In this document: piece after piece, positions 1,803 through 63,665 of the stretch
Layout: every line of letters starts with the position of its first letter
Numbering within the stretch: position 1 is the stretch's first letter
Assembly (NCBI GenBank): GCA_030610855.1
Contig: JAUWQY010000004.1
Location: forward strand, 9,382 to 73,381
Reading direction: 5' to 3'
Length of the DNA stretch: 64,000 nt
Source: Dehalococcoidia bacterium
Lineage (GTDB): Bacteria; Chloroflexota; Dehalococcoidia; GIF9; AB-539-J10
Program-made: the position numbers and the translations under genes
The notes under the pieces: model-generated
Seen by the model: only the letters and a program-made list of their open reading frames with translations
Told to the model about the DNA's origin: nothing
Databases searched by the model: none

Positions 1803-2020
1803 AAGGCGTTAGCTGGGTTGCTGGACTATTATTAATACCTTTCCCGGCTTGGTTGTACCAAGCTAAGAGCAATATATTATAATGGCGAGGCCGTCTTAAA
1901 AGTCCGCGACGAGCAACAAATACCTAGAGGCGAATCAAGATTACAGTTAATCCGTTATCCAAGCGTAGAAGAACCAGACGCCAACGCAAGCGCCTTCATC
2001 ATACGTTAGTAATCATATGG

Positions 2021-3826
2021 GTGGGCTGCCTCTTTACGCTTGTGGCTTTACTGGTTCAACCATTGTATGGCATCAATCTGTGGTTTTCGGACCAGCTTTT
2101 CACCTCTGAACCCCCTTCTCCTAATATCGTTATCGCTGGTATCGATGACGATACCCTCGACACTTATGGACGGTGGGCAGAGTGGCCACGCACTCTCCAT
2201 GCTCAAGCTATCGATAACCTGAGCCAAGCTGGAGCCAAGGTAATCGGCTTTGATGTCATCTTCGCCGATAGTTCATCCGATGATGAGATGCTGGCAACAG
2301 CAATGGTCAAGGCGGACAATGTTGTCCTGGCCGCCGTTGGCACTCAACGTGTCTCCCAGGCCAGAGCTGAGATTACCTATGATAATTTCCTGCTGCCGAT
2401 AGCTTCTCTAGAACAGGCCGTCAGTAATATTGGACATGCCAATGTGGTTCCCGATGGCGATGGCACAGTGAGGCGACTACCGCTGCTTGTTAAGTCAAGC
2501 TCAGGACAAGTCTATCCCGCATTGGCCCTGGCTGTACTTCACAGGCTATTCTCCATGCCTCTACCGCAAGAATATCTGCTCGAAAATGGCACCGTTAACT
2601 TGTTGGCTCGTGATATTCCAGTTGATACCTCATATTATCTACGTATCAACTTTTCCGCCGATAATGAAAGACGGCCGTACGTCTCCTACGGTGATGTTAT
2701 CAGCGGCGACTTTAACCCGTCGATAGTCAATAACAAGATAGTATTGATCGGGATGACCGCTACCGGTGAGCCCGACGCCTGGGCAATCCCCACCTCAGTC
2801 AGCAAGATTCCCGGAGTTTTTATACACGCTGCTGCCATGGATACCATTCTCACAGAGCGTTTCTTGATAAAGCCTGGCATAATCATCACGCTAATGATTA
2901 TGCTGCTGCTGGTTAGCATCACTGCCTTTGCCTTGCCCCGGTGTGGGACCTGGTACTGGAGGGATGTAGCTAAGGGAGTGGGGATAACAGGAGGCTTATT
3001 TGTTGCTTCCCTGGTAGCCGGCTTCTTTGCTTTCGACAGAGGATATAGCCTAGATCTGCTTTATCCCCTGTTGCTACTACCGGTAGTTTATGTCGGTAAC
3101 GTTCTTTACATGGTCGTTAGTGAGCAGTCGGATAAAAAGTTTGTCAAGGAGCTTTTTGGTCGATATATTTCACCCCAAGTAGCCAAGGAGATACTTAGCC
3201 GAGCTGATGCTGGAGAACTTCGCCTCGGTGGTGAGCAAAGGGAGGTAAGTGTGCTCTTTGCTGATATCCGTAACTATACGCCGATAAGTGAGCAGTTGTC
3301 TCCTGAAGCTATAGTGGAAATGCTAAATACTTACTTATCAGTTGTGACCGATTCAGTAGTACAGCATGATGGTATAGTTAACAAGTTTTGGGGCGATAGT
3401 ATCATAGCAGTATGGAACGCGCCGCAATCTCGGCCAGAGCATGCATTGCTGGCAGTCAAGGCAGCGTGGGAAGCACAGCAGAAAGCTGCTGAACTACAGA
3501 AAAGCGATAACCGGCCACTCCCAGTGCAATTTGGTATTGGCATTAACACTGGTATAGCCTTAGCCGGCAATATAGGCTCGGTTGGACGCTCCGAATATAC
3601 CGTCATCGGAGATTCCGTTAACATTGCTTCACGCATTTGTAGTAGCGCCCCCGGCGGTGAAGTCTGGATTGGTGCTGAGACTTATAATCAAACAAAAGAT
3701 TATATAGAAACCGAGGAACTCGAGCCACAGAAACTTAAGGGGAAAGCAGCACCCATTATAGTATATCGAGTAACTGCATGGCGCCCTATAACCCCTCAGA
3801 ACAAAAGTAGGCCCTCGCCCTCCTAA
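2021..3826 (+). CDS. CHASE2 sensor-domain class III adenylate/guanylate cyclase
   Basis: The C-terminal cyclase homology domain shows VSVLFADIRNYT, KFWGDSIIAVWNAP, GINTGIALAGNIGS and YTVIGDSVNIASR. A large extracytoplasmic CHASE2-like region is followed by a block of TM helices (res ~285-370). GTG 2021 is the first canonical start, but the frame is open from 1928. Confidence 0.85.
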   Translation: MGCLFTLVALLVQPLYGINLWFSDQLFTSEPPSPNIVIAGIDDDTLDTYGRWAEWPRTLHAQAIDNLSQAGAKVIGFDVIFADSSSDDEMLATAMVKADNVVLAAVGTQRVSQARAEITYDNFLLPIASLEQAVSNIGHANVVPDGDGTVRRLPLLVKSSSGQVYPALALAVLHRLFSMPLPQEYLLENGTVNLLARDIPVDTSYYLRINFSADNERRPYVSYGDVISGDFNPSIVNNKIVLIGMTATGEPDAWAIPTSVSKIPGVFIHAAAMDTILTERFLIKPGIIITLMIMLLLVSITAFALPRCGTWYWRDVAKGVGITGGLFVASLVAGFFAFDRGYSLDLLYPLLLLPVVYVGNVLYMVVSEQSDKKFVKELFGRYISPQVAKEILSRADAGELRLGGEQREVSVLFADIRNYTPISEQLSPEAIVEMLNTYLSVVTDSVVQHDGIVNKFWGDSIIAVWNAPQSRPEHALLAVKAAWEAQQKAAELQKSDNRPLPVQFGIGINTGIALAGNIGSVGRSEYTVIGDSVNIASRICSSAPGGEVWIGAETYNQTKDYIETEELEPQKLKGKAAPIIVYRVTAWRPITPQNKSRPSPS

Positions 3827-4374
3827 TGTCTACCTTTGCCTTTAAGGAGAGTCTCCTGGATAAGCCTCTCTAGGTTATCAGGCACAACAGGCTTGATTAG
3901 ATAATCAGCAGCACCCAGTTTCATCGCCTCAACTGCCAGCTCTGCTGAGAGATAGGCCGTCATAACGATGGACTTAATGTACGGCTTTGACTCCTTCACC
4001 TCTCTTAGTACCTGAAGCCCGGTTTTTCCAGGCAGTCTCACATCTATGACCAGAATATCGAAGTCCTGCTTCTCTATCAGTTCCAGCGCTTCTTCACCCG
4101 TCCCGGCCGTTACCACCTGGTAAGTGTCCTTGAGGTACTCCCCTAGCGACTCCCTTAGAATTGCCTCGTCATCTACAATTAGAACGATCTTCTCCTCAGT
4201 AGGATACTCTCCTAGGCTTTGCGCTATGAGTTGGACCAAATACTTCTGTATAGAAGTATCCTCGGATACGCCTTTCACCTTCAGCTTTTTGTAAACCCCT
4301 TCTGGTATTCTCGCATGAAGCTGTTTTGTGGTTTCCGGCTTCAGGTTCAGTATCGCAGTCAATTCGATCTCCAC
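3823..4374 (-). CDS. response regulator: N-terminal ribbon-helix-helix-like segment plus receiver domain
   Basis: The receiver domain shows IVLIVDDEAIL, DILVIDVRLPGKTG, MTAY and GAADYLIKP. It is preceded by ~60 aa with a CopG/Arc-type pattern (KQLHARIPEGVYKKLKVKGVSEDTSIQKYLVQLIAQSL). Its stop overlaps the stop of the convergent cyclase gene. Confidence 0.8.
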   Translation of the reverse strand: MEIELTAILNLKPETTKQLHARIPEGVYKKLKVKGVSEDTSIQKYLVQLIAQSLGEYPTEEKIVLIVDDEAILRESLGEYLKDTYQVVTAGTGEEALELIEKQDFDILVIDVRLPGKTGLQVLREVKESKPYIKSIVMTAYLSAELAVEAMKLGAADYLIKPVVPDNLERLIQETLLKGKGRH

Positions 4375-6695: not shown

Positions 6696-7820
6696 ATGTC
6701 GCTTAGTTCAGATATCAAGGAGTATGCCCTCGCCCTTGGCTATGACCGAGTGGGGTTCACCACAGCCGAGAGATTCACTCTCTACGAGGAAGAAATACTG
6801 AAACGAGAGGACATGTATAGCTGGGCTACAGGTCCTGGCTGGGGTTTATTGCAGGGGGTCGATCCCAAGACTATTCTACAGGAAGCAGAGTCAGTGATTG
6901 TCACCGTCTTCGATTATTTCAGGCATTCATATCCCCTGGACATGGTAGGCAAAGTGGGGCGGGCCTATCAATCTCTGGGCGGCGCACCTCCCATTCCTGT
7001 TCACCGGGCGCGTTACCGATTGCTCAGAGAGTTCCTCGAGAAGCAGGGGGCTAAGGTGGGCAAAGCCACCTTCGACTTGCCTGCGCGGCTGGCGGGTGCC
7101 CGCGCCGGAGTCACCAGCTATGGCAAGAACACATTTGCCTTTGCCGAAGGAATTGGTTCCTTCGTCGTCATCGCCACCCTTGTGATAGACAAGGAACTGG
7201 AATACGATGAGCCGACCTTTGAGGTTAAATGCCCTGAGAAGTGCAACTTGTGCCTTGAGGCGTGCCCTACCGGAGCTCTTTATGAGCCACTCAAAATGAA
7301 CCCACGGCATTGCATCGCCTACAACTCCTATAATGCACCAGGATCATGGTTTGGCGGTACTCAAGCAGTGTTACCGCCGGAAATCAGAGACCACATGGGC
7401 ACATGGGTCTATGGTTGCGATGTCTGCCAACAGGTCTGCCCCCGCAATCAGCCAAGGCTCAAGGCGAAACTGCCACCGAATCCGTACCTGGAGCACATAG
7501 CCGCCGATTTCCAGTTGGGCAAACTGGTGAATATGTCCGATGAACATTTCAGGCGGCTATTCGTACTGCTGAACTATGTTGACAACAAGCGTTATCTCCA
7601 GAGAAATGCCGCAGTCGCTCTGGGCAATGAAGCAGATCCCGAGTCTCTACCCGTGCTGGCTCAAGCAATGCAGTGCCCAGATGAACCGCTTCGCGGGCAT
7701 GCTGCCTGGGCACTCGGCAAGATCGGGGGTGCTAAGGCCTCGAGAATCCTGGAGTCAAACCTGGCCCAAGAGCCCTCGCAATACGTGCACAGCGAGATCA
7801 GAGCAGCGCTCACAAGATAG
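6696..7820 (+). CDS. queG: epoxyqueuosine reductase (tRNA queuosine biosynthesis)
   Basis: Two ferredoxin-type motifs are present (CPEKCNLCLEACPTGAL and CDVCQQVCPRN), plus C-terminal HEAT-like repeats (PVLAQAMQCPDEPLRGHAAWALGKIG). The ~375-aa length is typical of QueG. Confidence 0.8.
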   Translation: MSLSSDIKEYALALGYDRVGFTTAERFTLYEEEILKREDMYSWATGPGWGLLQGVDPKTILQEAESVIVTVFDYFRHSYPLDMVGKVGRAYQSLGGAPPIPVHRARYRLLREFLEKQGAKVGKATFDLPARLAGARAGVTSYGKNTFAFAEGIGSFVVIATLVIDKELEYDEPTFEVKCPEKCNLCLEACPTGALYEPLKMNPRHCIAYNSYNAPGSWFGGTQAVLPPEIRDHMGTWVYGCDVCQQVCPRNQPRLKAKLPPNPYLEHIAADFQLGKLVNMSDEHFRRLFVLLNYVDNKRYLQRNAAVALGNEADPESLPVLAQAMQCPDEPLRGHAAWALGKIGGAKASRILESNLAQEPSQYVHSEIRAALTR

Positions 7821-40402: not shown

Positions 40403-41077
40403 ATGGAGATCATCGAAGCCGTGAAAAGGCGCAGGAGTATCAGGGGTTTCAAACCGGACCCTGTGGCCAAAGAGGTCCTGGAGGAACTACTGGAGATGGC
40501 GAGCCGTGCCCCCTCGGCCATGAACACTCAGCCGTGGGAGTTCACAGTGCTCACAGGGAGTGTTCTGGACAAGGTGAGACGGGCCAATGTTGAGCTGCTG
40601 AACTCCGGAGCGTCACCCAATCCCGAGCACGTGGTCGTGGGCTGGCCCAGGGAAAGCATATATCGCGAGCGCCAGGTTAACCTCGCCAAGCAGCTCTTCC
40701 AGGCTATGGGCATAGCGAGGGAGGACAAGGAGAAGAGGGCACAATGGATCGAGCGGGGATTTCGTTACTTCGATGCGCCGGCCGCTATCATCATCTCCAC
40801 CGACCGCTCTCTGAGCGAAAGCGGGCCACTGCTCGATATCGGCGCTGTCATGCAGACTATCTGTCTTGCCGCGCTGCATTTCGGCCTTGGTACCTGCATC
40901 GAGGACCAGGGGGCAATGTATCCCGACGTATTGAGAAGATATGCCGGCATACCCGACTCCAAGCGGATAACCATGGCCATCGCTATCGGCTATCCTGACT
41001 GGGATTTTCCTGCCAACAAAGTAGAGAGTGAGAGGGAGCCTGTGAAGAACATCACTACCTGGCTCGGTTTTGACTAG
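40403..41077 (+). CDS. nitroreductase family protein
   Basis: MEIIEAVKRRRSIRGF, APSAMNTQPW and the overall FMN-nitroreductase pattern are present. I prefer the ATG at 40403. Confidence 0.85.
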   Translation: MEIIEAVKRRRSIRGFKPDPVAKEVLEELLEMASRAPSAMNTQPWEFTVLTGSVLDKVRRANVELLNSGASPNPEHVVVGWPRESIYRERQVNLAKQLFQAMGIAREDKEKRAQWIERGFRYFDAPAAIIISTDRSLSESGPLLDIGAVMQTICLAALHFGLGTCIEDQGAMYPDVLRRYAGIPDSKRITMAIAIGYPDWDFPANKVESEREPVKNITTWLGFD

Positions 41078-41248
41078 ACAGCTCTGTCAGTCGCTTCATC
41101 CTTCGGCCTTGTCCTGACAGGCAATCTCTTCGCTGAAACCCGAGGAGCTTTCTCGGTTTGTAAGCTTGCTGTCATCGGTTGGTGTCAGCGCTCGGGCTGA
41201 ACCTCAGCAGGCGGAGTTCTCGGACACTGTATCAATCCACACGCCAAT

Positions 41249-42415
41249 ATGAGGGAGACAGCGGGGGTAGTGAGTCAATTCGAAATGGATAAGAATTCAG
41301 TTTGTGCAGAATTACTATGTAATGGTGTATTTGACCTGGGTGTTATTGAAGATGTATTGTTTGAAGAAGATATGGAATGGGCGAAACCACAATATTCCCG
41401 TAAGGAAGTCAACTGGGCTGGGGCATCCCTTCTCAGTGATGTTGAGTTAAAGGAAGCCGAATCTGACCATGCCATAGATATAGTGAATAACTTCCGAGTT
41501 GCACATGCATTCCCACTGAATACACTCCAAAATCGTTTGCGAACTCAGGCGAATAACATAGATGGAAATAGCATTGTAGCGCAGCGTCTCAAGAGATTGT
41601 CTTCTATTTACGCGAAGTTGGACCGATTCCCCCAAATGGAATTATGGGATATGCAGGATATCGGGGGTTGCCGTGCTGTTATCAATACCCTTGATGCTAT
41701 TGAGCAGTTAGTAGAGACTTTCAAATCAAGTAGTATTAGGCATAAGCTCTCGCATGAGGACGATTATGTACAACAACCGAGAGATTCTGGTTATAGAAGC
41801 AGGCACTTGATTTATCGCTACACAAGCGATAGAAACGAAGTATACAATGGATTAAGGATTGAAATACAGATTCGTACCGCTCTCCAGCACGCTTGGGCTA
41901 CAACAGTTGAGACAGTTGATGCTTTTACACAGCAGGCATTGAAGTCAAGTAGGGGCGAACCCGATTGGGGGCGATTCTTCCAGTTAATGGGTACCGAGAT
42001 GGCATTCAGTGAAGGCACTCCAGCGGTAGTTGGCACCTCCACTAATAGGCAAGAATTGCGCCAAGAGTTAAGGAATTGTGCCAGTAAGCTACAAGTAATC
42101 ACTAGTCTTAGAGGGTTCACAACTGCATTGCAGGTTACGCGGCGCGCATCAGCAAAAGCTAAAGACGCCGATTACTTCTTGCTTTCGCTGGACAATGTTG
42201 CGGAACGCCTGAGTGTTACTGGCTATAAGCGCAGAGAATTAGGACAAGCATCCCAAGCCTATGCTAGAAAGGAGAGGAAAATCCGAGACAAAAGGGGGAA
42301 AGATGCTGTTCTTGTGTCTGTTGATTCCATTCGCAATCTGCAGCGTGCATACCCGAATTATTTCGCTGATACGGTCATTTTTGTACAGGCACTACAAGAA
42401 GCATTACAGGGATAA
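41249..42415 (+). CDS. RelA/SpoT-homologue synthetase-only protein (small alarmone synthetase / toxSAS-like) with unassigned C-terminal domain
   Basis: The motifs RLKRLSSIYAKL, MQDIGGCRAV, SGYRSRHLIYRY and IEIQIRTALQHAWATTVE are present. There are no HD, TGS or ACT domains. The gene is AT-rich relative to its flanks. Alternative ATGs lie at 41285 and 41372. Confidence 0.85.
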   Translation: MRETAGVVSQFEMDKNSVCAELLCNGVFDLGVIEDVLFEEDMEWAKPQYSRKEVNWAGASLLSDVELKEAESDHAIDIVNNFRVAHAFPLNTLQNRLRTQANNIDGNSIVAQRLKRLSSIYAKLDRFPQMELWDMQDIGGCRAVINTLDAIEQLVETFKSSSIRHKLSHEDDYVQQPRDSGYRSRHLIYRYTSDRNEVYNGLRIEIQIRTALQHAWATTVETVDAFTQQALKSSRGEPDWGRFFQLMGTEMAFSEGTPAVVGTSTNRQELRQELRNCASKLQVITSLRGFTTALQVTRRASAKAKDADYFLLSLDNVAERLSVTGYKRRELGQASQAYARKERKIRDKRGKDAVLVSVDSIRNLQRAYPNYFADTVIFVQALQEALQG

Positions 42416-42423
42416 ATCGTTAT

Positions 42424-42445
42424 TGGCAAATGGTTCAATTTGCCA
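42424..42445 (+). terminator. hairpin just after the RelA/SpoT-like gene
   Basis: TGGCAAAT-ggttca-ATTTGCCA forms an 8-bp stem with a weak T-tail. Confidence 0.35.
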
Positions 42446-42617
42446 GTCTTACAATCTCTTCGATCGTCCAAATGTGATTAGCTAGACCCGCTGCCCAGCC
42501 GGGGCAACGCTTGCCAGTGCGCACCGCCGGTGCAGTATAGCCAGAACTCTGGAAAAACTGCTCTGTTACTAGTACACTTAGCTGCTGTAGGGCGTTCAAT
42601 TCTTTCTACTGGCTGAC

Positions 42618-43181
42618 ATGGATTTAGAGGCAGAAAAGGACTTAGTCAGGCAAGCGCAGAAAGACCCCGATGCCTTTGCCGGGCTTTACGATCACTATTA
42701 TCCGAAGATATTCGGCTATGTTCTGAGACGAACCGCCAATCTTGAAGCTGCCCAGGACATCACTTCAGAGACGTTTTTCAAGGCATTGAGAAAGCTCTGG
42801 CAATTCCGCTGGCGTAACATCTCCTTCTCCGCATGGCTCTACAGAATCGCCAGCAACGAGACTAGCCAGTATTTCAGACAACCCGAACACAGGAAATCGG
42901 CATCGCTCGAGGAAATGCAGGAACAGGGTTTTGAACCCGTATCGCCCGACGACCCGGCAGGCGAACTGGCAGAAGCACAGGAAAAACTGCAACGACACCG
43001 TGATTATTGCCAGATTCAGGCAAAGGTCGCCCGGCTCCCTGCCAAATACCAGGAGGTCATCGCGCTAAGGTTTTTCGAGCAGAAACAGATGAAAGAAATC
43101 GCGGAAATCCTGGGCAAGAAAGAGGGAACGGTGAAATCCTTGCTCCACCGGGCTGTGGAGAAACTAAGAGAAGCGGAATAA
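42618..43181 (+). CDS. ECF-type RNA polymerase sigma-70 family factor
   Basis: Region 2 (YDHYYPKIFGYVLRR...DITSETF) and a region 4 HTH (QKQMKEIAEILGKKEGTVKSLLHRA) are present. Confidence 0.88.
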   Translation: MDLEAEKDLVRQAQKDPDAFAGLYDHYYPKIFGYVLRRTANLEAAQDITSETFFKALRKLWQFRWRNISFSAWLYRIASNETSQYFRQPEHRKSASLEEMQEQGFEPVSPDDPAGELAEAQEKLQRHRDYCQIQAKVARLPAKYQEVIALRFFEQKQMKEIAEILGKKEGTVKSLLHRAVEKLREAE

Positions 43182-43223
43182 TGCAACCTTTCTTGCCCTT
43201 CTGCATTACAGTAATAGAGGGAG

Positions 43224-43874
43224 ATGAAGTCGATGAAACAAGAAGACCTGATCAAGAGACTGGAAAACCTGGAAACTCCTGAAATCGAGCTTCCCTGTCA
43301 CAAACAGGGATTAAGAATGGCTTTGCTTAACTCCGGGCGCTTCAAGAACAGGACGGTCCTGGATTGGGCAAAGATGCTGGCCCCTGCCAGTGCTGCCCTC
43401 GTTTTGATAGGGGTGGTCGGATTCTTCAATGTAATTCAGCCCCAATTACAGATAGCCCAGGCCAAGGAAATCGCCAGGAACGACCCCCAGGTTCAAGCGT
43501 TGCTGCAAGAATACGGGCTGGAGATTGCACAAGTTAAGCTGGAGAATGGCGAGGCATTTCTTTTGCTTGCTCCTCCACCTGCTTCTACATTATTGACTGA
43601 CAACTCCACTCGTGCGGGACTGGGCTTTTTCAAATGGGCATCGCCTCCTCCTCAAGAGGGATTGAATGTTTCTGAAGACGAAGTGCCTGCTCCTTCTGGA
43701 GAGGGATTGTCTCCTGGGTATCTGCTCAAGGTCGACCTCCTGGAGAAAAAGGTGATTGGGTTCCGGGAAATGGAGGAGATCACCGCGCTTCGGGAGATAG
43801 ACCTTGAAGGCATGGACTTCGCGGAGTTGGAACCACCGGAGGCTAAGGCTCCTGAGGAGGCCGATCCCGAGTAG
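43224..43874 (+). CDS. single-pass membrane protein, possible anti-sigma factor
   Basis: A ~50-aa cytoplasmic N-terminus is followed by one TM helix (LAPASAALVLIGVVGFFNVI) and an extracytoplasmic domain. The gene lies 42 nt after the sigma gene. There is no zinc-binding HxxxCxxC, so the role is inferred from position only. Confidence 0.5.
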   Translation: MKSMKQEDLIKRLENLETPEIELPCHKQGLRMALLNSGRFKNRTVLDWAKMLAPASAALVLIGVVGFFNVIQPQLQIAQAKEIARNDPQVQALLQEYGLEIAQVKLENGEAFLLLAPPPASTLLTDNSTRAGLGFFKWASPPPQEGLNVSEDEVPAPSGEGLSPGYLLKVDLLEKKVIGFREMEEITALREIDLEGMDFAELEPPEAKAPEEADPE

Positions 43875-43943
43875 GGGCAGTGTAGCCGCCCGTTCCGATG
43901 TCAACAGATCGATGAGAAAATCACAGAAGTTTGAAGGAGGTAA

Positions 43944-45902
43944 ATGAAAATGAGGAACAAGATTGTCAAAACAGCTGCTTGCCTGGTTGTAATCGCGATC
44001 ATGCTGATAACCCTGCAGCACGCGCTGCCCAACCAGGGACGTGTGGGAGCGAATCAAATCAGTAGATTCACCTCGTATGAGGAACTGAAGGGATTCGTGA
44101 GGGAGAGCACAAAAGATGGAGCACTCCCCAGGATGGCCTTCGACTCTTCGCTGCTGGGAGGGGCGGCCGAAAACGCGGCGCCTGCGCCCCCTGGCTCCGG
44201 TTACTCTGCCACCAATATTCAGGTTGCCGGGGTTGACGAGGCAGATATCGTCAAGACCGACGGGGAGTATATCTACCTCGTTTCCGAGAACAGGACTATC
44301 ATCGTGAAGGCATATCCGCCTGAAGAGGCTCGAATCCTGTCTCAAATCGAGGTAGAGCGAACAGTTGTGGGAATCTTCATCAACGGAGATAGGCTCGTCG
44401 TGTTCGAGGGAGGAATGCCCTATTATTCTCTGCCCGGCGTAAGGGAGGCTGACATGATGGCTTACATGCCTTACATGTCACCGAGGACATCTATCAGAAT
44501 ATACGATGTCTCAGACAGGGAAAACCCCTTGTTGCAGAGGGAGTTCTCCGCCGATGGTGATTATGTCAGTTCCAGGATGATCGACGATTATGTTTATGTG
44601 GTGATAAATGAGCCCGTGTATGAGCAAGACGGTCAAGTGATCCTCCCCAAGATTCATGTCGACGATGAGGAGACGGAGATACCCGCCACAGATATCTACT
44701 ACTGTGATGTCCACGACTACTACTATATGTACACAACTATTATGGCCATAAACACGCAGAACGATGACCAGGAGCCAACACGTGAAACAATCCTGCTTGG
44801 AGCCAGTAGCAACCTGTATGTCTCGCTGAATAACATCTACCTGACCTTCCCGGTGTGGGGAAGAGATGTGGGAGATCTCGCCAAGACCTCCATCCACCGG
44901 ATTCATATAGAAGGTGACGAAATAGAGTATGTCGCCAGCGGCGAGGTCCGTGGTATGGTCCTGAATCAGTTCTCCATGGACGAGTATGATGACCACTTCA
45001 GGGTGGCAACTACAACCCGCGGGCTAACATCCCGGAATAACGTATACATTCTGAGTATGGCTCTGAACATTACCGGATCGCTGGAGGGCCTCGCTCCGGG
45101 GGAAACCATTTATTCAGCCAGGTTTATGGGCGAAAGAGGCTATCTGGTGACCTTCAAGCAGGTTGACCCGCTATTCGTGATAGACCTCGGTGACCCCCGT
45201 CACCCCAAGGAGCTCGGGTACTTAAAGGTAACTGGCTACTCAGACTACCTCCATCCCTACGACGAGGACCACCTCATAGGTATAGGTAAGGAAACAACGG
45301 ACGCGGGGGAATTTGCCTGGTATCAAGGAGTCAAGATATCGCTCTTTGATGTCAGCGATGTCAACAAGCCAGAGGAGATAGACAAGGAAATAATAGGGCA
45401 CAGGGGCACTGATTCACCTGTCTTGTGGGACCACAAGGCGTTTCTCTTTGATAAGTCGAGGAATCTGATGGTGATACCTGTTTCGGTTGCCCAGATAGAC
45501 GAGGCGGAATATCCTGAGGCGGAATATCCTGAGGGAGTTCCCTCCTGGGCCTGGGGCGGAACCGTCTGGCAGGGCGCCTACGTATTCAACGTCACCCCGG
45601 AGGCAGGTCTCAGGCTTAAAGGGCGGATCACCCATCTTGAGGGTCTCACCGACCCCGAAGAAGATTACTACTACGACTGGTATCCCTTCTCGGTGAAGCG
45701 ATCGCTCTACATCGGCGATGTTCTCTACACCATCTCGGATGCCAGGATAAAGATGAACAGCCTTGAGAACCTGGCTTACATCAACGAGGTGGAGCTTCCC
45801 TTCACCACCTGGCCGCCTTATGACTACCTCCCCGATGAACCCTGGGACGACGAACCGCCTGTGGACGACAAATCTGAGGGTGAAGAGCCCCTGCGTCCCT
45901 GA
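43944..45902 (+). CDS. secreted/anchored beta-propeller domain protein (Beta_propel-like)
   Basis: The protein has an N-terminal anchor. NIQVAGVDEADIVKTDGEYIYLV and repeated blade-like segments are present. The tail is acidic and Pro-rich. The family call is from memory. Confidence 0.65.
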   Translation: MKMRNKIVKTAACLVVIAIMLITLQHALPNQGRVGANQISRFTSYEELKGFVRESTKDGALPRMAFDSSLLGGAAENAAPAPPGSGYSATNIQVAGVDEADIVKTDGEYIYLVSENRTIIVKAYPPEEARILSQIEVERTVVGIFINGDRLVVFEGGMPYYSLPGVREADMMAYMPYMSPRTSIRIYDVSDRENPLLQREFSADGDYVSSRMIDDYVYVVINEPVYEQDGQVILPKIHVDDEETEIPATDIYYCDVHDYYYMYTTIMAINTQNDDQEPTRETILLGASSNLYVSLNNIYLTFPVWGRDVGDLAKTSIHRIHIEGDEIEYVASGEVRGMVLNQFSMDEYDDHFRVATTTRGLTSRNNVYILSMALNITGSLEGLAPGETIYSARFMGERGYLVTFKQVDPLFVIDLGDPRHPKELGYLKVTGYSDYLHPYDEDHLIGIGKETTDAGEFAWYQGVKISLFDVSDVNKPEEIDKEIIGHRGTDSPVLWDHKAFLFDKSRNLMVIPVSVAQIDEAEYPEAEYPEGVPSWAWGGTVWQGAYVFNVTPEAGLRLKGRITHLEGLTDPEEDYYYDWYPFSVKRSLYIGDVLYTISDARIKMNSLENLAYINEVELPFTTWPPYDYLPDEPWDDEPPVDDKSEGEEPLRP

Positions 45903-45954
45903 ATCTGAACGGAGGAGAAAAATTGGACGGCTAGATACGAGGGTGTTTGGCAAC

Positions 45955-45982
45955 GCAGCGCGAGGCTAATACCTCGCGCTGC
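45955..45982 (+). other. perfect 11-bp GC-rich hairpin between the beta-propeller and serpin genes
   Basis: The hairpin is GCAGCGCGAGG-ctaata-CCTCGCGCTGC. No U-tract follows. Confidence 0.6.
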
Positions 45983-46002
45983 AAGACTCGGAGGTGATCT
46001 AG

Positions 46003-47304
46003 ATGAAGAAGAGATTGATATCAATACCAGTCATATTGGCGGCGGTGTCGCTGGTAATCGTATTGTTGTTGGCGCTGCTGCCAGGCTCTGTTCAACCGGC
46101 AGTAGCTGATACGCTTAAGTCGGACAAGCCGCGTATAACTTTGCCGGTTATCAGCGCGGCTGATGAGACGTTGCTGGTTGAAGGAAACCGCGCCTTCGCC
46201 TTCGAGCTTTACCGGGCGCTAAGGGAAAGCGATGGGAACTTCTTCTACTCTCCTTACAGCATCTCGGTAGCGCTGGCCATGACATACGCCGGCGCCCGTA
46301 GCGAGACGGCACAGCAGATGGCCGATACCCTCCATTTCCTTCTTGGGCAGGAGAAACTGCACCCGGCATTCAACTGGCTGGACGCAGAACTCGCCAAAAG
46401 GGGCCAAGGTGCCGAAGGGAAGGATGACGAAGGATTCAGACTTAACGTCGTCAACGCCATCTGGGGACAGAAGGATTACAAGTTCCTTTCAACCTTCCTC
46501 GACATCCTGGCCGAGAACTACGGTGCCGGGTTGAGAATACTTGACTTCATAACGGAGGCGGAAGCGTCGCGCCTTGCTATCAACCAGTGGGTCAGCAACC
46601 AGACCGAGAGCCGCATCAACGACCTTATCCCGCAGGGCGCGATCGATAAACTGACCCGCCTTGTGCTGACCAATGCCATCTACTTCAATGCCGCCTGGGA
46701 GCACCCCTTTGATGAACGCATGACGGCGGACGGCCCGTTCTACCTGCTTGACGGCGGACAGGTCACCGTGCCCATGATGAAGCAGACCGAATCGTTGGGC
46801 TATTTCCAGGGGCAAGGATTTCAAGCAGTGGAGCTAGGCTACGATGGCGGTGAACTCTCGATGGTTATCCTGTTGCCCGAACCGGGCCAGTTCGAGGCTT
46901 TTGAAGAAGAGCTGAACGCCCAGCGGGTGGAGGCCACCATAGGTGGTCTACAACCTATCCCGCTGGCCCTGACGATGCCCAGGTTTGAGTTTGATTCAGA
47001 ATTCAGCCTGAAGGACACCCTCGCAGAGATGGGCATGCCGATCGCTTTCTCCGGTGCTGCCGATTTCTCGGGAATGACGGGCTCACCGGACCTCTGCATA
47101 AGTGAGGTGCTGCACAAGGCTTTTGTCTCGGTAGACGAGGCAGGCACAGAGGCGGCAGCGGCCACGGCAGTGGTCATGAAACTCACCGGAATGCCCATTC
47201 AGCCAGTCGAATTCACCGTAGACCGCCCCTTCGTCTTCCTCATTCGCGACATTGAGACGGGCGCCATTCTCTTCGTCGGTCGCGTCCTGAATCCCGCTCC
47301 ATAG
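46003..47304 (+). CDS. serpin (serine protease inhibitor) with N-terminal membrane anchor/signal
   Basis: FSPYSISVALAM, the hinge and reactive-centre loop (EAGTEAAAATAVVMKLTGMP) and FTVDRPFVFLIRD are present. Confidence 0.88.
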   Translation: MKKRLISIPVILAAVSLVIVLLLALLPGSVQPAVADTLKSDKPRITLPVISAADETLLVEGNRAFAFELYRALRESDGNFFYSPYSISVALAMTYAGARSETAQQMADTLHFLLGQEKLHPAFNWLDAELAKRGQGAEGKDDEGFRLNVVNAIWGQKDYKFLSTFLDILAENYGAGLRILDFITEAEASRLAINQWVSNQTESRINDLIPQGAIDKLTRLVLTNAIYFNAAWEHPFDERMTADGPFYLLDGGQVTVPMMKQTESLGYFQGQGFQAVELGYDGGELSMVILLPEPGQFEAFEEELNAQRVEATIGGLQPIPLALTMPRFEFDSEFSLKDTLAEMGMPIAFSGAADFSGMTGSPDLCISEVLHKAFVSVDEAGTEAAAATAVVMKLTGMPIQPVEFTVDRPFVFLIRDIETGAILFVGRVLNPAP

Positions 47305-47352
47305 GCACAGAGCAGGTCGACTGCGCTTTTGCCAGGAATCCCCCTCACCCAA

Positions 47353-47377
47353 ACCCTCTCCCGCGAGTGGAGAGGGT
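47353..47377. repeat. class-B hairpin repeat (ACCCTCTCC-7 nt-GGAGAGGGT)
   Basis: The stem is a perfect 9 bp and is preceded by CCCCTCACCC. Confidence 0.65.
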
Positions 47378-47420
47378 CCTAGACCTTGGGTGAACCATTA
47401 CATCGCCCTCACTTCAATCC

Positions 47421-47436
47421 TCCCTCGCCGGAGGGA
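47421..47436. repeat. class-B-like hairpin (TCCCTC-gccg-GAGGGA)
   Basis: The stem is 6 bp and is preceded by GCCCTCAC. Confidence 0.5.
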
Positions 47437-47498
47437 AGCCGAGGAGAAAGGACAAAACAGAGTCGACCTCATTTAGTGAAGCCACGAGACAGTCCTTA

Positions 47499-47527
47499 TT
47501 GACATTTCGACCGTTGTATGTCATGAT
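47499..47527 (+). promoter_or_regulatory. candidate promoter of the MarR gene (TTGACA-N17-TGtCATGAT)
   Basis: TTGACA lies at 47499-47504 and CATGAT at 47522-47527, preceded by TGT. Confidence 0.4.
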
Positions 47528-47580
47528 AGAAGCAAGACGAAAGATCCAAGTCGCAGCAGAATAGTCAGGAGGAAAGCCCT

Positions 47581-48123
47581 ATGCCGAAAGAGTTGAAAGA
47601 TGAAGGTCAGAGCCTCAAAGCGTTTATGTTGCTGCATCGGACCCGCGACCTGCTTTTCAGATGTCAGGATCGAGCAGTTGCAGAGTTCGGGCTTACTGCG
47701 GAGCAATACTCAGTGCTTTTAGCTATAGAATACCTCGATGATCCTGTAAGGGCAACTGACATAGGCCGCTGGATGGAACGTAAGGTGAACAGCATAAGTA
47801 TGATAGTCGACCGCATGGTCAAGGCCGGTCTAGTGGAAAGGATAAGAGACTTGCCGGACCGCAGGGCAGTACGTGTCGTTTTCACCAGCAAGGGGAAGCG
47901 GGCTTTTGAGCTGGCGACTCCGGAAGTCTGGAAACTTATCGACGAAATGTTTTCGCCACTGCCCCATGAGGAGAAGCGTACTCTCATCAGACTGCTCGAG
48001 ACGCTAAGAGAGAGAGCACTCAAGCATCTGAACCCGGGAACGGATGTTCGGGCAATAGCGACTTATGGGACTGACGACGCGTCCCGTCTCCTGAAACGGA
48101 TGCGGAGGTACACTCCTCAGTAA
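47581..48123 (+). CDS. MarR family transcriptional regulator
   Basis: A winged HTH is present (LTAEQYSVLLAI...ATDIGRWMERKVNSISMIVDRMVKAGLVER...DRR). Confidence 0.85.
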   Translation: MPKELKDEGQSLKAFMLLHRTRDLLFRCQDRAVAEFGLTAEQYSVLLAIEYLDDPVRATDIGRWMERKVNSISMIVDRMVKAGLVERIRDLPDRRAVRVVFTSKGKRAFELATPEVWKLIDEMFSPLPHEEKRTLIRLLETLRERALKHLNPGTDVRAIATYGTDDASRLLKRMRRYTPQ

Positions 48124-48161
48124 GAAGGGGGCAACTCTGTTTCTTGTATAACCGTGCATCG

Positions 48162-48740
48162 TCAATCTGGTATTGGAAGGCCGGCTTCGGAACTACCCAT
48201 TACCTCTTGCAGCGCCGAGCGGTAGCTTTCATACGTCCTGTCATCGAATAGCACGAACACCACTTCCTTAAGCGAAGTAGACTGCTCCTCGAGAAAAGAG
48301 ACCACGGCGCTTACAGCTATCTTTGCCGCTTCATCCAAGGGGTAGCCATAGGCACCGGTGCTTATGGAAGGGAAAGAGATGCTGCCCAGTTTGTTACCGG
48401 TAGCTAATCGCAGGCACTCATAATAGGCGCTCTTCAGAAGCTCGGGTTCGTTTCTGCTGCCGCCATGCCAGACGGGGCCGACAGTATGTATCACATAGCC
48501 TGCATTGAGATTTCCTCCGCCGCTGATTACCGCTTTGCCCGTGGGCAACCGCCCCTTTTGGGCAACGATTTTCCTGCACTCCTCCAGTATTGCCGGTCCC
48601 CCGGCCCGGTGTATCGCCCCATCTACCCCTCCCCCTCCCATCAAACCGGGGTTGGCAGCGTTAACAATGGCCTCGGTAGCCTGGTCGGTGATATCCCCGC
48701 GGACGATAGACACTTTCGTTTCGTTGATCGTTACCTCCAT
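48162..48740 (-). CDS. macro domain protein (O-acetyl-ADP-ribose deacetylase / ADP-ribose hydrolase-like)
   Basis: IVNAANPGLMGGGGVDGAIH, GYVIHTVGPVW and SISFPSISTGAYGYP are present. Confidence 0.88.
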   Translation of the reverse strand: MEVTINETKVSIVRGDITDQATEAIVNAANPGLMGGGGVDGAIHRAGGPAILEECRKIVAQKGRLPTGKAVISGGGNLNAGYVIHTVGPVWHGGSRNEPELLKSAYYECLRLATGNKLGSISFPSISTGAYGYPLDEAAKIAVSAVVSFLEEQSTSLKEVVFVLFDDRTYESYRSALQEVMGSSEAGLPIPD

Positions 48741-60990: not shown

Positions 60991-61124
60991 TAGCCATCGA
61001 CCCTCGGGCGGTGAGCTGGAGACCCAGGTAGCTGAAAGTTCCGCTTGGATCGGCGATGACCGAGACGGACAAGAGGAGGTCCTTTTGTGACCCTCTCGGT
61101 TAGGCCGAGAGGGTTTTCTTGTTT
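60991..61124 (+). promoter_or_regulatory. ~134-nt structured 5' leader ending in an intrinsic terminator (candidate riboregulator / pan-motif-like element)
   Basis: The leader lies between the promoter and the first gene of the DUF2520-panD-panB-panC cluster. The sequence gaccctcgg (61001-61009) resembles the 5' arm of the terminator, so an alternative pairing with the 3' arm is possible. Confidence 0.45.
61090..61124 (+). terminator. intrinsic terminator within the pan leader
   Basis: A 10-bp stem (ACCCTCTCGG-ttagg-CCGAGAGGGT) is followed by TTTCTTGTTT, 33 nt before the ATG at 61157. Confidence 0.7.
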
Positions 61125-61156: not shown

Positions 61157-62200
61157 ATGTTAAAGACAGGCTTTATTGGTGCTGGAACGACGGGCACTGC
61201 CCTGACCGTAAGGCTTTCTCAGAAGAAATGGCCTGTAGTGGCTGTGTTCAGTCGGACCTTGTCCTCGGCACAAAAACTGGCCCGGCTGGTGCCGGATTGC
61301 CAGATTTGCGACACAGCCCAGGAGCTAGTCGATATTGCTGATCTGGTCTTCATCACCACCCCCGATGATGTTATAGCCCAAGTATGCCATGAAGTTCAGT
61401 GGCGTGGAGGTCAGAGCGTGGTGCATTGCAGTGGGGCTCATTCGGTGGATATTCTGGAACCGGCAAGAGAGCGTGGAGCGGCTGTTGGTTCGTTTCACCC
61501 GTTGCAGACCTTTGCCAATGTTGACCAGGCTACACAGAATCTGCCAGGTTCCACTTTTGCCCTGGAAGCCGAAGAGCCGCTGTTATCGACACTGAAGCAG
61601 TTGACTATTCTCTTGCATGGCACCTGGGTGAAGCTTAAGCCAGGGGACAAGGTGCTGTATCACGCGGCAGCCGTTTTCGCCTGCAATTATGTGGTAACCC
61701 TGGTCAAGTTGGCTCTCGACCTGTGGCAGGATTTCGGAGTGTCGCCGAAGGAGGCGACCAGGGCATTGCTGCCCTTGCTACAAGGGACGGTAAACAATAT
61801 CGGCAATATCGGGTTACCCGGGTGTCTTACCGGTCCTGTTGCTCGAGGGGATCTCGACACCATAGAGAGACACTTGGACGCCCTGCAGGCCAAAGACCCT
61901 TCTTTCCTCACTATCTATAAGGAACTGGGACTTCAGACCATTCCTATTGCCCTGACCAAAGGCAAGATCGACAAACAGAGGGCAGACGAGATGACGGCGC
62001 TGCTTGGTAACCGTGAGTTTTCCGCTCGTTGTCATTCTGAGCGAGCAGACCGACCGAACAATCTCACTCAGGGCACACTTCGGCAAGCGCCCAAAGGCCG
62101 CCAAGATTCTTCGCCCCGACAAATCGGGGCTCGGAATGACAGAAGGGGAGTCAGGACGACAGAAAAGGAGATAGGCAATGAGAACTATGCTGAAAAGTAA
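61157..62200 (+). CDS. Rossmann-fold oxidoreductase, DUF2520 family (candidate ketopantoate reductase) with repeat-encoded C-terminal tail
   Basis: [12 protein letters not shown] is at the N-terminus and PVARGD at the C-terminus. It is first in the cluster with panD, panB and panC. The last ~60 codons run through a class-A palindromic repeat and overlap panD by 23 nt. Confidence 0.75.
62041..62150. repeat. class-A palindromic repeat inside the 3' end of the DUF2520 ORF
   Basis: The sequence reads GTCATTCTGAGCGAG...GATTCTTCGCCCCGACAAATCGGGGCTCGGAATGAC. Confidence 0.75.
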
Positions 62201-62783: not shown

Positions 62784-63665
62784 ATGCGGGTTACCATCAC
62801 CGAGATAAGACAGATGAAGCATAGGAAAGAAAAGATACCTATGCTCACCGCTTATGATTACGTGACGGCCAGGATGGTTGATGAAGCGGGCGTGCCTCTG
62901 ATACTGGTTGGAGATAGCCTGGGGATGGTGATGCTGGGCTACGAGTCAACCATCCCGGTGACCATGGATGATATGATCCACCATACCAAAGCTGTAGTCA
63001 GAGGTGCTAAGAAAGCCTTAATAATAGGCGACATGCCGTTCATGAGTTACCATATCAGCCTCTCCGACGCTTTATCCAATGCTGCAAGATTCATTCAGGA
63101 AGGAGGAGCACAGGCCGTCAAGATGGAGGGTGGCGAGGTCGTCGCTGAACAGGTCAGACGCCTTGTGGGCTGCGGCATCCCGGTCATGGGGCACATTGGA
63201 CTTACTCCGCAGTCGATACATCAACTGGGAGGATTCAAGGCACAGGGCAAGGCGGTGAAGGAAGCCAAGAAGCTGCTCGATGATGCTCGTATATTGGAGG
63301 AAGCCGGCGCCTTTGCCATCGTTCTGGAATGCACTCCGGCGCCCCTTTCCGAGCTCATTACTCAAAGGCTGGCTATCCCCACGATTGGCATCGGCGCCGG
63401 GCCTGGTTGTGACGGTCAGGTTCAGGTAATCAGCGATATTCTGGGCCTCTACACCGACTTTGTACCCAAGCATGCCAAACAATACGCCAGGTTAGCCGGG
63501 GAAATCAGAAATGCTGTTGCCGATTACATGTCTGAAGTCAAGTCTCTCGCTTTCCCCACTGACGAACAGAGCTACACCATGGACGAAAGCGTCATCAAAC
63601 AGCTACAGGCGGAAAGCGTCAACGATGTCGTTGCGAGCGAAGCCAAGCAATCCAAATGCAGGTAA
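62784..63665 (+). CDS. panB: 3-methyl-2-oxobutanoate hydroxymethyltransferase (PanB copy 2, in pan cluster)
   Basis: [30 protein letters not shown] and GHIGLTPQS are present. The C-terminal [12 protein letters not shown] is encoded by a repeat-arm-like sequence. Confidence 0.92.

Follow-up and report, generated by a model that had tools for sequence, protein, structure and literature searches.

A predicted CapRel-type toxSAS gene on a putative IS1-family-derived cassette in a Dehalococcoidia chromosome

We analyzed a stretch of 64,000 nucleotides from a Dehalococcoidia bacterium (hereafter the window) and found that its chromosome has horizontally acquired a cassette that carries a single gene. 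Judged by sequence and by predicted structure, this gene is a fused, full-length and ordinary CapRel-type toxSAS gene. The cassette itself, from its termini and a coding relic, is best described as a transposase-less derivative of an IS1-family "transporter" insertion sequence, of the mobile insertion cassette type. Overall, we consider it probable that an IS1-derived CapRel cassette in the spacer between a nitroreductase and an ECF-sigma gene provides a self-inhibited, tRNA-targeting defence like that of CapRel-SJ46, which is a tRNA pyrophosphokinase and a fused toxSAS toxin-antitoxin (Zhang et al. 2022, PMC9712102; Zhang et al. 2024, PMC11578894). The gene belongs to a known family, and its vehicle is modestly novel. 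The features are collected in Table 1; loci used for comparison are denoted by L numbers.

Table 1 Features of the inserted cassette and its gene, with positions in the window.
Feature	Position	Strand	Basis
Target-site duplication, left copy	41259..41267	.	CAGCGGGGG; comparison with the empty site and L085
Inserted mobile cassette, ~1.23 kb	41266..42495	+	Empty sites, collinearity breaks, L086 homology, GC
Left terminal inverted repeat, putatively IS1-family type	41266..41284	+	GGTAGTGAGTCAATTCGAA; end fits GGnnnTG
Candidate promoter inside the cassette	41331..41360	+	Promoter scan and conservation
Predicted fused CapRel-type toxSAS gene	41372..42415	+	Best model 347 aa
toxSYNTH (RelA/SpoT synthetase) core	41582..41902	+	Pfam PF04607, E = 1.3e-17
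Predicted pseudo-zinc-finger domain (pseudo-ZFD)	42131..42319	+	AF2 topology and alignment to 7ZTB
YPNY (YXXY) putative autoinhibitory motif	42350..42361	+	Alignment to CapRel-SJ46
Predicted hairpin	42422..42447	+	10 bp, ATTGGCAAAT / ATTTGCCAGT, just 3' of the stop codon; fold prediction
Putative IS1-family transposase C-terminus relic	42435..42494	-	20 codons, AAGLANHIWTIEEIVRLAN then stop, convergent with the toxSAS gene
Target-site duplication, right copy	42496..42504	.	CAGCCGGGG, one mismatch

The insertion and its vehicle

The insert is missing from the sister genomes L001, L021, L024 and L026, where the nitroreductase and ECF sigma genes lie ~300 bp apart, and collinearity with L001 breaks at 41267 and 42496. 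In L086, which has another genomic context, nucleotide homology covers exactly 41266-42492. By this comparison, L086 holds the same cassette, ending at the same bounds, elsewhere in a genome; no recognisable target duplication was found in the flanks of that copy. The empty site in L001 contains CAGCGGGGGG once, and a perfect 10-bp CAGCGGGGGG is present on both sides of the insert in L085, a locus from another sample with 97% amino acid identity and the same insertion site. In the window, the insert is bordered on both sides by CAGCGGGG(GG). The target duplication is 8-10 bp long, the last two G of its left copy being ambiguous with the first two bases of the element.

The composition of the insert is also distinct. 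The toxSAS gene has the lowest GC (0.446, z = -4.0) and the lowest GC3 (0.406, z = -3.8) among the 44 genes of the window, and the insert is the lowest-GC 1229-bp segment anywhere in the 64 kb. An earlier sequence-only reading of this DNA had counted G+C by hand in 60-nt lines (22/60, 24/60 and 36/60); these counts were exact on recount, and the compositional deviation taken from them agrees with the formal GC and GC3 analysis. The horizontal acquisition that it proposed is borne out by the empty sites in sister genomes, the target duplication and the lowest-GC stretch. Its description of the gene as self-contained also holds. Its view of the ECF sigma, serpin, MarR and macro genes as accessory does not, as these genes are syntenic in insert-free Dehalococcoidia genomes and normal in GC. 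The window gene lies outside any defence island and its neighbours are core genes.

The vehicle, a putatively IS1-family-derived cassette, had been missed by the earlier reading. The ends of IS1-family elements are given as GGnnnTG, with a DR of 8-9 bp, in the excerpt of the ISfinder table quoted in PMC10425158. The left end of the cassette (GGTAGTG) fits this form; the right end (GGCAGCG) is one base off and degenerate. The terminal inverted repeats match at 14/19 positions with the duplication included and at 9/13 without it. The motif GGT[AG]GTGnn[TG]CAnTT[TC] was matched 22 times in 1.9 Mb, against 0.11 expected matches; the enrichment is ~200-fold, and the matches mostly flank RSH homologues, with 3 stray. 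Around the RSH homologue of L124 we found an intact IS1-family element with 18-nt perfect TIRs and a perfect 8-bp TSD, and around that of L105/106 TIRs matching at 15/16 positions and a 7-8-bp TSD. The Pfam model DDE_Tnp_IS1 (cutoff 24.1 bits) scored 45.2 bits in L124 and 28.3 bits in L105.

A relic of the transposase was found in 12 of the 122 homologue loci. Longer relics or intact transposases occupy the same position in L098, L105/106, L124 and L207-210, and in L123 a relic lies in the opposite orientation. The tail peptide of the window was identified as a putative IS1-family transposase relic through the longer version in L123: tblastn of the longer version matches features annotated as IS1 family transposase, and tblastn with the short peptide alone gave a best E of 0.05. 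Because only a 20-codon relic remains, the cassette appears to be a non-autonomous derivative. It encodes no DDE_Tnp_IS1 transposase, and no IS1-type transposase for action in trans was found within the 64-kb window. Among the ranked matches in a limited literature collection, we found no link between CapRel and insertion sequences.

Several other candidates around the gene were rejected. A 54-aa ORF (42435-42599, minus strand), considered as an antitoxin or transposase gene, is chimeric, its N-terminal part being ancestral spacer and its C-terminal part cassette. The convergent genes downstream of the homologues in L083 (SocA_Panacea) and L087 (a 136-aa ORF), considered as conserved antitoxins, are unrelated to the window tail and have no PADLOC matches. 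We found no credible adjoining ORF for a separate antitoxin, as the sequence-only reading had stated. The IS1595 transposase beside the L206 homologue, considered as the source of the relic, shares no relic. An integron-cassette (attC) or tRNA-targeted island origin was also discarded, with no tRNA in the window and no integrase. The IS relic lies in the region of the 3' hairpin and explains it, which counts against an attC origin.

The gene and the CapRel family

The ORF check of the window returned a plus-strand ORF of 388 aa at 41249..42415, with all of the synthetase motifs that had been quoted for it. In this numbering, RLKRLSSIYAKL is found at residues 113-124, MQDIGGCRAV at 135-144, SGYRSRHLIYRY at 180-191 and IEIQIRTALQHAWATTVE at 204-221, and the C-terminal segments DYFLLSLD and AVLVSVDSIRNLQRAYPNYF at 308-315 and 353-372. 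The 388-aa model is not supported, however, as its first codons derive from flanking DNA outside the cassette: the ATG at 41249 sits in ancestral flanking DNA and reads ACG in the empty-site relative L001. The true start is probably the ATG at 41372, giving 347 aa, and two starts further upstream, 41249 and 41285 (the latter giving the 376 aa of the database call), are probably unused. In the 94 unique loci compared, the ATG at the position of 41372 is kept in 63, and an in-frame stop lies at most 29 codons upstream of it in 48. Substitutions in the N-terminal extension hit codon positions 1 and 2, and residues 1-18 of the 376-aa AF2 model have pLDDT <50. The locus shows how a chance upstream ATG in flanking DNA can inflate a gene model.

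A candidate promoter is predicted inside the cassette, with a -35 element TTGACC (41331-41336), an 18-nt spacer, a -10 element TATTGT (41355-41360) and 11 nt to the ATG at 41372. The arrangement TTGACy-N18-TAT(T/C)(G/T)T-N11-ATG is kept in 13 unique loci, down to ~46% protein identity, and 2 more loci fit only a looser search pattern; the frequency of the pattern in shuffles was 0.003. In L096, an in-frame TGA lies between the -10 element and the ATG. The non-coding flanks described earlier for the gene measure 171 and 202 nt, and the hairpin described after the stop codon is present. The hairpin is partially conserved in L086 and L123. As an intrinsic terminator it was rejected, since it does not satisfy the terminator scan and its 101-nt fold has a z-score of -0.77.

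From a dN/dS of 0.11-0.39, the toxSAS gene is under purifying selection. Positive selection on the sensor domain was also considered and rejected: domain-wise dN/dS stays <0.6, so that no signal of positive selection appears at this resolution.

Sequence, profile and predicted structure all agree with the earlier proposal of a stand-alone fused CapRel-type toxSAS. RelA_SpoT (residues 112-218) is the sole significant Pfam match of the protein; the HD, TGS and ACT domains reported as absent were not found by the Pfam search, and the protein scores far below the cutoffs of the long-RSH NCBIfam models. The HMM placement against RSH subfamilies that had been suggested gave a full-length CapRel match and a score below the cutoff of the RelQ equivalog. 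By phmmer against the PDB, the two CapRel-SJ46 chains 7ztb_A and 9erv_A are matched at E = 3.3e-47, with residues 48-381 aligned onto 14-365, and RelQ/RelP are matched at ~1e-10 over the ~110-residue synthetase core only. This search returned no FaRel, Tas1 or other non-CapRel toxSAS chain at E <= 1. BLASTP gave 33% identity to CapRel-SJ46 over the full length. A PADLOC search, also suggested earlier, matched PDC-S33 at 406 bits (E = 3.5e-122, residues 42-386), which is also the sole profile matched by residues 14-365 of CapRel-SJ46 (285 bits); no mention of PDC-S33 was found in the limited literature collection.

The AF2 model of the protein has a pLDDT of 87.8 and a pTM of 0.86. Its top Foldseek match is 7ZTB (E = 5e-23, 360 columns, TM 0.66-0.71), and SAS enzymes are covered over only ~180 columns. 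The RMSD to the open crystal form is ~10 A at a TM of ~0.7, which is compatible with a domain swing. Foldseek against BFVD gave synthetase-core matches only and found no full-length viral structure model there; IMG/VR contigs carry full-length homologues.

The residues that matter in CapRel-SJ46 are also present. Its R79 and R116 coordinate ATP and its Y155 belongs to the G-loop (PMC9712102); they correspond to R72, R101 and Y141 in the 347-aa numbering (R113, R142 and Y182 in the 388-aa numbering). The YXXY motif, whose function has been described in CapRel-SJ46 (PMC9712102), is represented by Y327 and Y330 (347-aa numbering), which correspond to Y352 and Y355. In 96 relatives, the equivalents of R79, R116, Y155, V338, L339, A351 and Y355 are invariant and that of Y352 is nearly so; in the YPNY region, the A, the P and the second Y are invariant, the first Y nearly so. 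A111, V354, L355 and A367 of the window protein are conserved relative to the interface residues of CapRel-SJ46. Among A77, V338, L339, A341 and A351, the sole difference is A341, which is S357 in the window protein.

The C-terminal region had been described as a possibly new sensor. From sequence and predicted structure, it instead appears to be the standard CapRel antitoxin domain of anchors, pseudo-ZFD and YXXY motif. Its ~150 residues align residue by residue with residues 215-365 of CapRel-SJ46, including V-L...A-Y-P-N-Y-F, and the alignment to 7ztb_A reaches residue 365 of 373. The pseudo-ZFD has a strand-strand-helix-strand topology in the AF2 model (E297-303, E308-314, H316-333, E339-345; 376-aa numbering) and contains no Cys and no His. 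Its entropy is 1.92, compared with 1.10 in the catalytic core, and it is presumed to be the trigger-sensing part of the antitoxin region. The C-terminal region has 1655 representative homologue clusters, stand-alone antitoxins included. In L211, a 213-aa RelA_SpoT gene is followed directly by a 140-aa gene whose product is homologous to the C-terminal 126 aa of the window protein, with 40% identity to its C-terminal region, including AYPNF/Y.

Proposed mechanism and alternative explanations

We propose that an IS1-family derivative transposed into the spacer between the nitroreductase and ECF-sigma genes, bringing its own predicted promoter and a single gene. By analogy with CapRel-SJ46, the anchor helices, pseudo-ZFD and YPNY helix of the antitoxin region would fold onto toxSYNTH and plug the ATP site between R72 and R101; with this site plugged, the resting enzyme would be harmless. 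During infection, a phage protein could bind the pseudo-ZFD and anchors and keep the enzyme open, and the open enzyme would move pyrophosphate from ATP to the 3'-CCA ends of tRNA. Translation would halt and the infected cell would abort the infection. Toxicity, substrate, autoinhibition and defence are all inferred from 33% identity to one characterised protein.

The same fused architecture might serve another chemistry, namely (pp)pApp synthesis and ATP depletion as in FaRel and Tas1. The tools used here do not read the substrate from the sequence, and the toxSYNTH fold is common to toxSAS of either chemistry (PMC9712102, PMC11782079). We regard this as quite unlikely: among solved structures, full-length relatives are limited to chains of the tRNA pyrophosphokinase CapRel-SJ46, no FaRel, Tas1 or other toxSAS chain was matched by sequence at E <= 1, and toxSAS of the CapRel group and of its sister, PhRel, have been described as inhibitors of translation. 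It is also unlikely that the transposon is the main beneficiary of the gene, for instance through stabilisation of the IS1-family element or the sensing of competing mobile elements, with host phage defence being secondary. RSH homologues are indeed recurrent IS1-family cargo, placed tail to tail with the transposase, and the window copy lies among core genes rather than in a defence island. However, classical addiction needs a separately labile antitoxin, which a fused single-polypeptide toxin-antitoxin does not have; the window copy has no transposase yet is under purifying selection; characterised family members protect against phages; and many homologue loci are without an IS (relic in 12/122). 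It is very improbable that a dead IS has left the gene behind as a non-functional passenger in decay. The transposase is down to 20 codons and the right inverted repeat is degenerate, but the ORF is intact with every catalytic and autoinhibitory residue kept, every domain has a dN/dS within 0.11-0.39, the promoter is conserved, and L085, from another sample, has an intact 97%-identical copy at the same site.

The remaining alternatives concern the family assignment. A housekeeping small alarmone synthetase of the RelQ, RelP or RelV kind, making (p)ppGpp for stress signalling, would agree with the RelA_SpoT Pfam domain and with homologues named "ppGpp synthetase" or "GTP pyrophosphokinase family protein" in their sources. 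It is close to refuted by the NCBIfam RelQ equivalog GTPPhKinYjbM (NF053588), which gives 62.3 bits where its cutoff is 320, by the core-only alignment of RelQ/RelP at E ~1e-10 compared with the full-length alignment of CapRel at 3e-47, by the location of the gene on a mobile cassette missing from sister genomes, and by the antitoxin domain with its YXXY plug. The idea that the C-terminal ~140 residues form a new sensor fold unrelated to CapRel antitoxin domains has in its favour that no Pfam model covers the region and that the pseudo-ZFD is its most variable part (entropy 1.92) and shorter than in CapRel-SJ46. At the fold level, sequence and model comparison refute it: the whole length aligns to residues 215-365 of CapRel-SJ46, the topology is the same with 360 Foldseek columns to 7ZTB, and the 1655 homologue clusters include stand-alone antitoxins. 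The self-inhibited, CapRel-SJ46-like enzyme on an IS1-derived cassette is the reading that we prefer.

The locus is an unusually clean natural experiment: the empty site is known exactly, the target is duplicated, and perfect inverted repeats are found in intact relatives. Together these suggest that an IS1-family element moves a defence-type toxin as its only cargo and that the toxin outlasts the transposase, which would be one route for single-gene immune sensors to spread beyond prophages and defence islands. The finding would also extend the CapRel innate-immunity family into Dehalococcoidia, which are hard to culture and whose phage biology is almost unknown. A bolder idea, which we hold to be doubtful, is that CapRel-type toxins are recurrent, selected IS1-type cargo and that the Dehalococcoidia copy senses something unlike the known triggers of enterobacterial CapRels, which are the capsid, Gp54 and Gp0.4. 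If true, this would amount to a minimal "one-gene immunity transposon" for bacteria, and the trigger could be a Chloroflexota phage protein or a product of competing mobile elements.

Comparison with known systems

CapRel-SJ46 (Salmonella phage SJ46 and E. coli prophages; 7ZTB, 9ERV) has the same N-terminal toxSYNTH and the same order of anchor-1, pseudo-ZFD and anchor-2 as the window protein. The two have in common the ATP-site arginines, the G-loop tyrosine, the YXXY plug and the V-L interface residues, a pseudo-ZFD that lacks cysteines and is the most variable region, and the PADLOC model PDC-S33. The window protein differs in being 33% identical, in a pseudo-ZFD that is ~9 residues shorter and in the A341 to S change. 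Its gene is found on a putative IS1-family cassette, not in a prophage, and its host belongs to Dehalococcoidia (Chloroflexota); the list of CapRel phyla in PMC9712102 does not contain Chloroflexota. In the bicistronic CapRel/ATcapRel and PhRel/ATphRel pairs (Jimmy et al. 2020, PMC7229694), the toxin and antitoxin are homologous to the parts of the window protein, whereas the window encodes both as one fused protein and lacks a separate gene for the antitoxin. RelQ (YjbM) and RelP (YwaC) share the RelA/SpoT synthetase core fold. Unlike the window gene product, they have no antitoxin domain and are tetrameric (p)ppGpp synthetases of the core genome.

Transporter IS and mobile insertion cassettes (MICs) are defined in PMC3129680. 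Like an IS1-family transporter IS, the window cassette has a GGTAGTG left end, an 8-10-bp duplication and a putative DDE_Tnp_IS1-type relic, and in the intact L124, L105/106 and L099 elements, TIRs, TSDs and a transposase enclose the same passenger. These elements differ from the window copy, which lacks a transposase and has a degenerate right end. Compared with IS1-family transporter IS, the window cassette is distinguished by its passenger, a predicted defence-type toxin.

Membership of the CapRel family

The 388-aa ORF proposed to encode a fused CapRel-type toxSAS is real (41249-42415, + strand), with every quoted synthetase motif where the sequence-only reading had placed it. RelA_SpoT (residues 112-218) is its sole Pfam domain; HD, TGS and ACT are absent, as described. 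The best PDB sequence match was CapRel-SJ46 (7ZTB, 9ERV; E = 3.3e-47), aligned over query residues 48-381 and residues 14-365 of the 373-residue chain, which covers the whole C-terminus. BLASTP identity to this protein was 33% over the full length. By contrast, the housekeeping synthetases RelQ and RelP aligned only in a core of ~110 residues (E about 1e-10), and the score for the NCBIfam RelQ equivalog was 62 bits (cutoff 320). In PADLOC, the candidate model PDC-S33 was matched over its whole length (406 bits). Because CapRel-SJ46 itself matches PDC-S33 (285 bits) and no other PADLOC model, that model is the profile of the fused-CapRel family.

Built from 96 relatives, the AlphaFold2 model was confident (pLDDT 87.8, pTM 0.86). 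Its top PDB matches were three CapRel-SJ46 chains (E = 5e-23, 360 aligned columns, TM 0.66-0.71), and the remaining matches covered only the synthetase domain of ~180 residues. We compared the residues shown to be important in CapRel-SJ46 (Zhang et al., PMC9712102). Counterparts were found for the ATP-coordinating R79 and R116, the G-loop Y155, the interface residues A77, V338, L339 and A351, and the autoinhibitory YXXY motif (Y352, Y355); the sole exception was A341, which is a serine in our protein. Both arginines, the G-loop tyrosine, the V-L pair, the alanine that precedes YXXY and the motif's second tyrosine were invariant in the 96 relatives, and the first tyrosine nearly so. Every domain was under purifying selection (overall dN/dS 0.11-0.39, against eight relatives). 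The full-length PDB match, PDC-S33, the model and the conserved residues bear out the proposed membership.

The gene is a fairly distant (33%) new member of a known, already profile-modelled family. More than 4500 homologues were present in the protein collection, several of them annotated in Chloroflexota, and IMG/VR viral contigs held full-length homologues at 32-45% identity. A set of full-length CapRel-like homologues at 36-38% identity (L180-L199 and other IMG/VR loci, e.g. L175, L178, L193) was located on numerous large viral contigs (100-160 kb), the majority of which belong to a single sample series (3300045988). These homologues have a longer N-terminus and lack an ATG at the M42-equivalent position.

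Insertion site and gene start

We collected 80 loci from Dehalococcoidia and other genomes via the upstream nitroreductase gene. The closest, L001, whose flanking proteins are 91-97% identical to those of the window, has the order L31, DUF1385, nitroreductase, 304-bp spacer, ECF sigma and anti-sigma, and lacks the RSH gene. Three others (L021, L024, L026) have the same arrangement without the RSH gene, and L026 additionally retains the beta-propeller, serpin, MarR and macro genes. The ECF sigma, serpin, MarR and macro neighbours, previously read as accessory, are therefore syntenic core, and their GC is normal. The bacterial serpin and its neighbour, a secreted beta-propeller, may form a functional unit controlled by the ECF sigma.

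Alignments placed the insert breakpoints at 41267 and 42496. In the window the insert is flanked by CAGCGGGGG and CAGCCGGGG; L085, from another sample, carries a 97%-identical copy at this site with a perfect CAGCGGGGGG on either side, and this repeat is single-copy in L001. Two further loci, L086 and L087, carry the gene in unrelated contexts. Nucleotide homology starts at 41266 in both and ends at 42492 in L086, and therefore the 1.23-kb unit is discrete and mobile; no clear target duplication was found around the L086 copy. The hand G+C counts (22, 24 and 36 per 60) were exactly right, and sliding-window GC was 0.43-0.47 over 41000-42750 versus 0.53-0.59 on either side. The toxSAS gene has the lowest values among 44 genes (GC 0.446, z = -4.0; GC3 0.406, z = -3.8), and the insert is the lowest-GC 1229-bp stretch of the 64 kb. 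The empty sites in relatives, the flanking repeat, the same unit in other contexts and the low GC confirm horizontal acquisition, and the insertion is recent.

ATG 41249, the start of the 388-aa model, sits in DNA common to L001, which has ACG there, and the database gene begins at 41285 (376 aa). The start codon conserved in the family is ATG 41372; this position is ATG in 63 of 94 unique loci, has an in-frame stop at most 29 codons upstream in 48 loci, and is the starting position of 39 of 95 aligned homologues. Across 41285-41371, substitutions gather at codon positions 1 and 2, not 3, and pLDDT is below 50. The motif TTGACC-N18-TATTGT-N11-ATG (41331-41374; shuffle frequency 0.003) is conserved at constant spacing in 13 unique loci whose protein identity goes down to about 46%. 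Its spacer varies freely, and in L096 a TGA in frame falls between -10 and ATG. The conserved ATG, upstream stops, codon-position pattern and conserved motif therefore lead us to read the gene as 41372-42415 (347 aa), and we infer that it is transcribed from its own promoter, with a very short leader.

The non-coding flanks are 171 and 202 nt, as described, and no adjoining ORF is a credible antitoxin. A 10-bp hairpin after the stop is present (42422-42447), but the terminator scan did not flag it. Both strands of the tail show weak likeness to parts of the L123 transposase C-terminus (CQSYNLFDRPN, +; AAGLANHIWTIEEIVRL, -), which suggests a small palindromic IS remnant. Elsewhere in the window, the second-lowest GC region (27-4374; about 0.47-0.49, GC3 0.48-0.54) may be another acquired segment. 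A pan motif upstream of a DUF2520/Rossmann gene (61157-62200) and panB (62784-63665) is consistent with a pantothenate-related cis-regulator.

Features in the window and in the loci fetched for comparison
Locus	Position	Strand	Feature	Remark
Window	27-4374		FecR/cadherin-like Big_9 surface protein, CHASE2-adenylate/guanylate cyclase, response regulator	
Window	42261-42485	+	Spurious ORF, 74 aa	overlaps gene's 3' end and tail
Window	42435-42599	-	Spurious ORF, 54 aa	overlaps gene's 3' end and tail
Window	42618-48740		ECF sigma, putative anti-sigma, beta-propeller (PF09826), serpin, MarR, macro-domain	all in L026, parts in L021, L024
Window	60992-61072		Rfam pan motif RF01749	36.6 bits, just above gathering score
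L124	5948-7036		Second passenger, 362-aa ORF	3.5-kb IS1-family element, beside RSH and transposase
L207	7533-7931	-	Truncated IS1-type transposase gene	own IR at 7515
L211	928-2072		213-aa RelA_SpoT toxin gene, 80 nt, 140-aa antitoxin gene	split toxSAS; antitoxin homologous to C-terminal region of window protein

A probable IS1-family vehicle

On the minus strand, the last 60 nt before the right end of the insert encode AAGLANHIWTIEEIVRLAN*. Extended forms (YNFARxHKTL...TPAMAAG..DH.W..EEIV.L) or whole genes occupy the same place in L098, L105/106, L124 and L207-210, convergent with the RSH gene and 0-32 nt from its stop; in L123 the relic is in the opposite orientation. No such relics were found elsewhere in about 1.9 Mb of fetched loci. 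The whole genes of L124 (292 aa) and L105 (231 aa) score above the Pfam DDE_Tnp_IS1 threshold, and the peptide also matches features annotated "IS1 family transposase". In L124, the RSH gene, the transposase and one further ORF, which had no PADLOC match, lie within inverted repeats of 18 nt (GGTAGTGGGTCAGTTTGG) and an 8-bp duplication (CGGCAGTC), both perfect. L105/106 have 15/16 repeats and a 7-8-bp duplication around RSH plus transposase, and the ends of L099 form a comparable pair. Against an expectation of 0.11, the fetched DNA contains 22 occurrences of the repeat motif; most of these flank RSH homologues (3 are stray), and the window's left end at 41266 (GGTAGTGAGTCAATTC) is among them. 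The right end (GGCAGCGGGTCT) is only IR-like, and no IS1-type transposase was found within the 64-kb window. IS1-family hallmarks are GGnnnTG ends and 8-9-bp direct repeats (ISfinder table quoted in PMC10425158). The relic, the intact relatives and the repeat motif therefore indicate a transposase-less derivative of IS1-family transporter elements carrying CapRel homologues, a putative mobile insertion cassette as defined in PMC3129680.

Two other arrangements were observed. In L207 (7515-9112; also L208-L210), the truncated transposase gene adjoins an RSH cassette that has a left IR of its own (7909), an arrangement that looks like insertion of the cassette into, or recombination with, another IS1 copy. 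In L083 (6545-9511; also L084, L094), an RSH homologue with 68% identity has an IS4/IS5-type DDE_Tnp_1 transposase and an IS1-type relic on its upstream side and a convergent SocA_Panacea gene on its downstream side. This domain is known from antitoxins and is odd beside an already fused toxin-antitoxin.

The antitoxin domain and known CapRel systems

In the AlphaFold2 model the C-terminal domain shows the pseudo-zinc-finger topology (strand-strand-helix-strand). It contains no Cys or His, and it varies more than any other part of the protein (entropy 1.92 versus 1.10 in the catalytic core), as likewise reported for CapRel. It is therefore the canonical CapRel antitoxin/sensor domain and not a possibly new sensor, although somewhat more compact than in CapRel-SJ46 (9-residue deletion in a hairpin). 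Searching the C-terminal 126 residues alone against 1.84 billion representative proteins (E <= 1e-3) returned 1655 clusters, many of them 135-146-aa proteins matched end to end. One, P0180, encoded directly after the RelA_SpoT gene of L211, shares 40% identity with the C-terminal region of the window protein and retains the AYPNF/Y motif; this pair is the split form of the fused system. Split CapRel/ATcapRel and PhRel/ATphRel pairs have been described (PMC7229694, PMC9712102).

By homology to CapRel (PMC9712102, PMC11578894), the resting enzyme would be closed, the YPNY helix lying between both arginines. A phage protein would bind the pseudo-zinc-finger domain and anchors; once opened, the enzyme would pyrophosphorylate tRNA 3' ends, translation would halt and infection would abort. 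Known triggers are capsid, Gp54 and Gp0.4-FtsZ, and differ even among close homologues.

Overall, an ordinary defence gene is correctly identified, and the story of how it was mobilised is tidy and somewhat unexpected. The limited literature searched contained no link between CapRel and insertion sequences. Compared with the known systems, for which Chloroflexota is not among the phyla listed (PMC9712102), both the phylum as a CapRel host and the IS1-type vehicle are modestly new.
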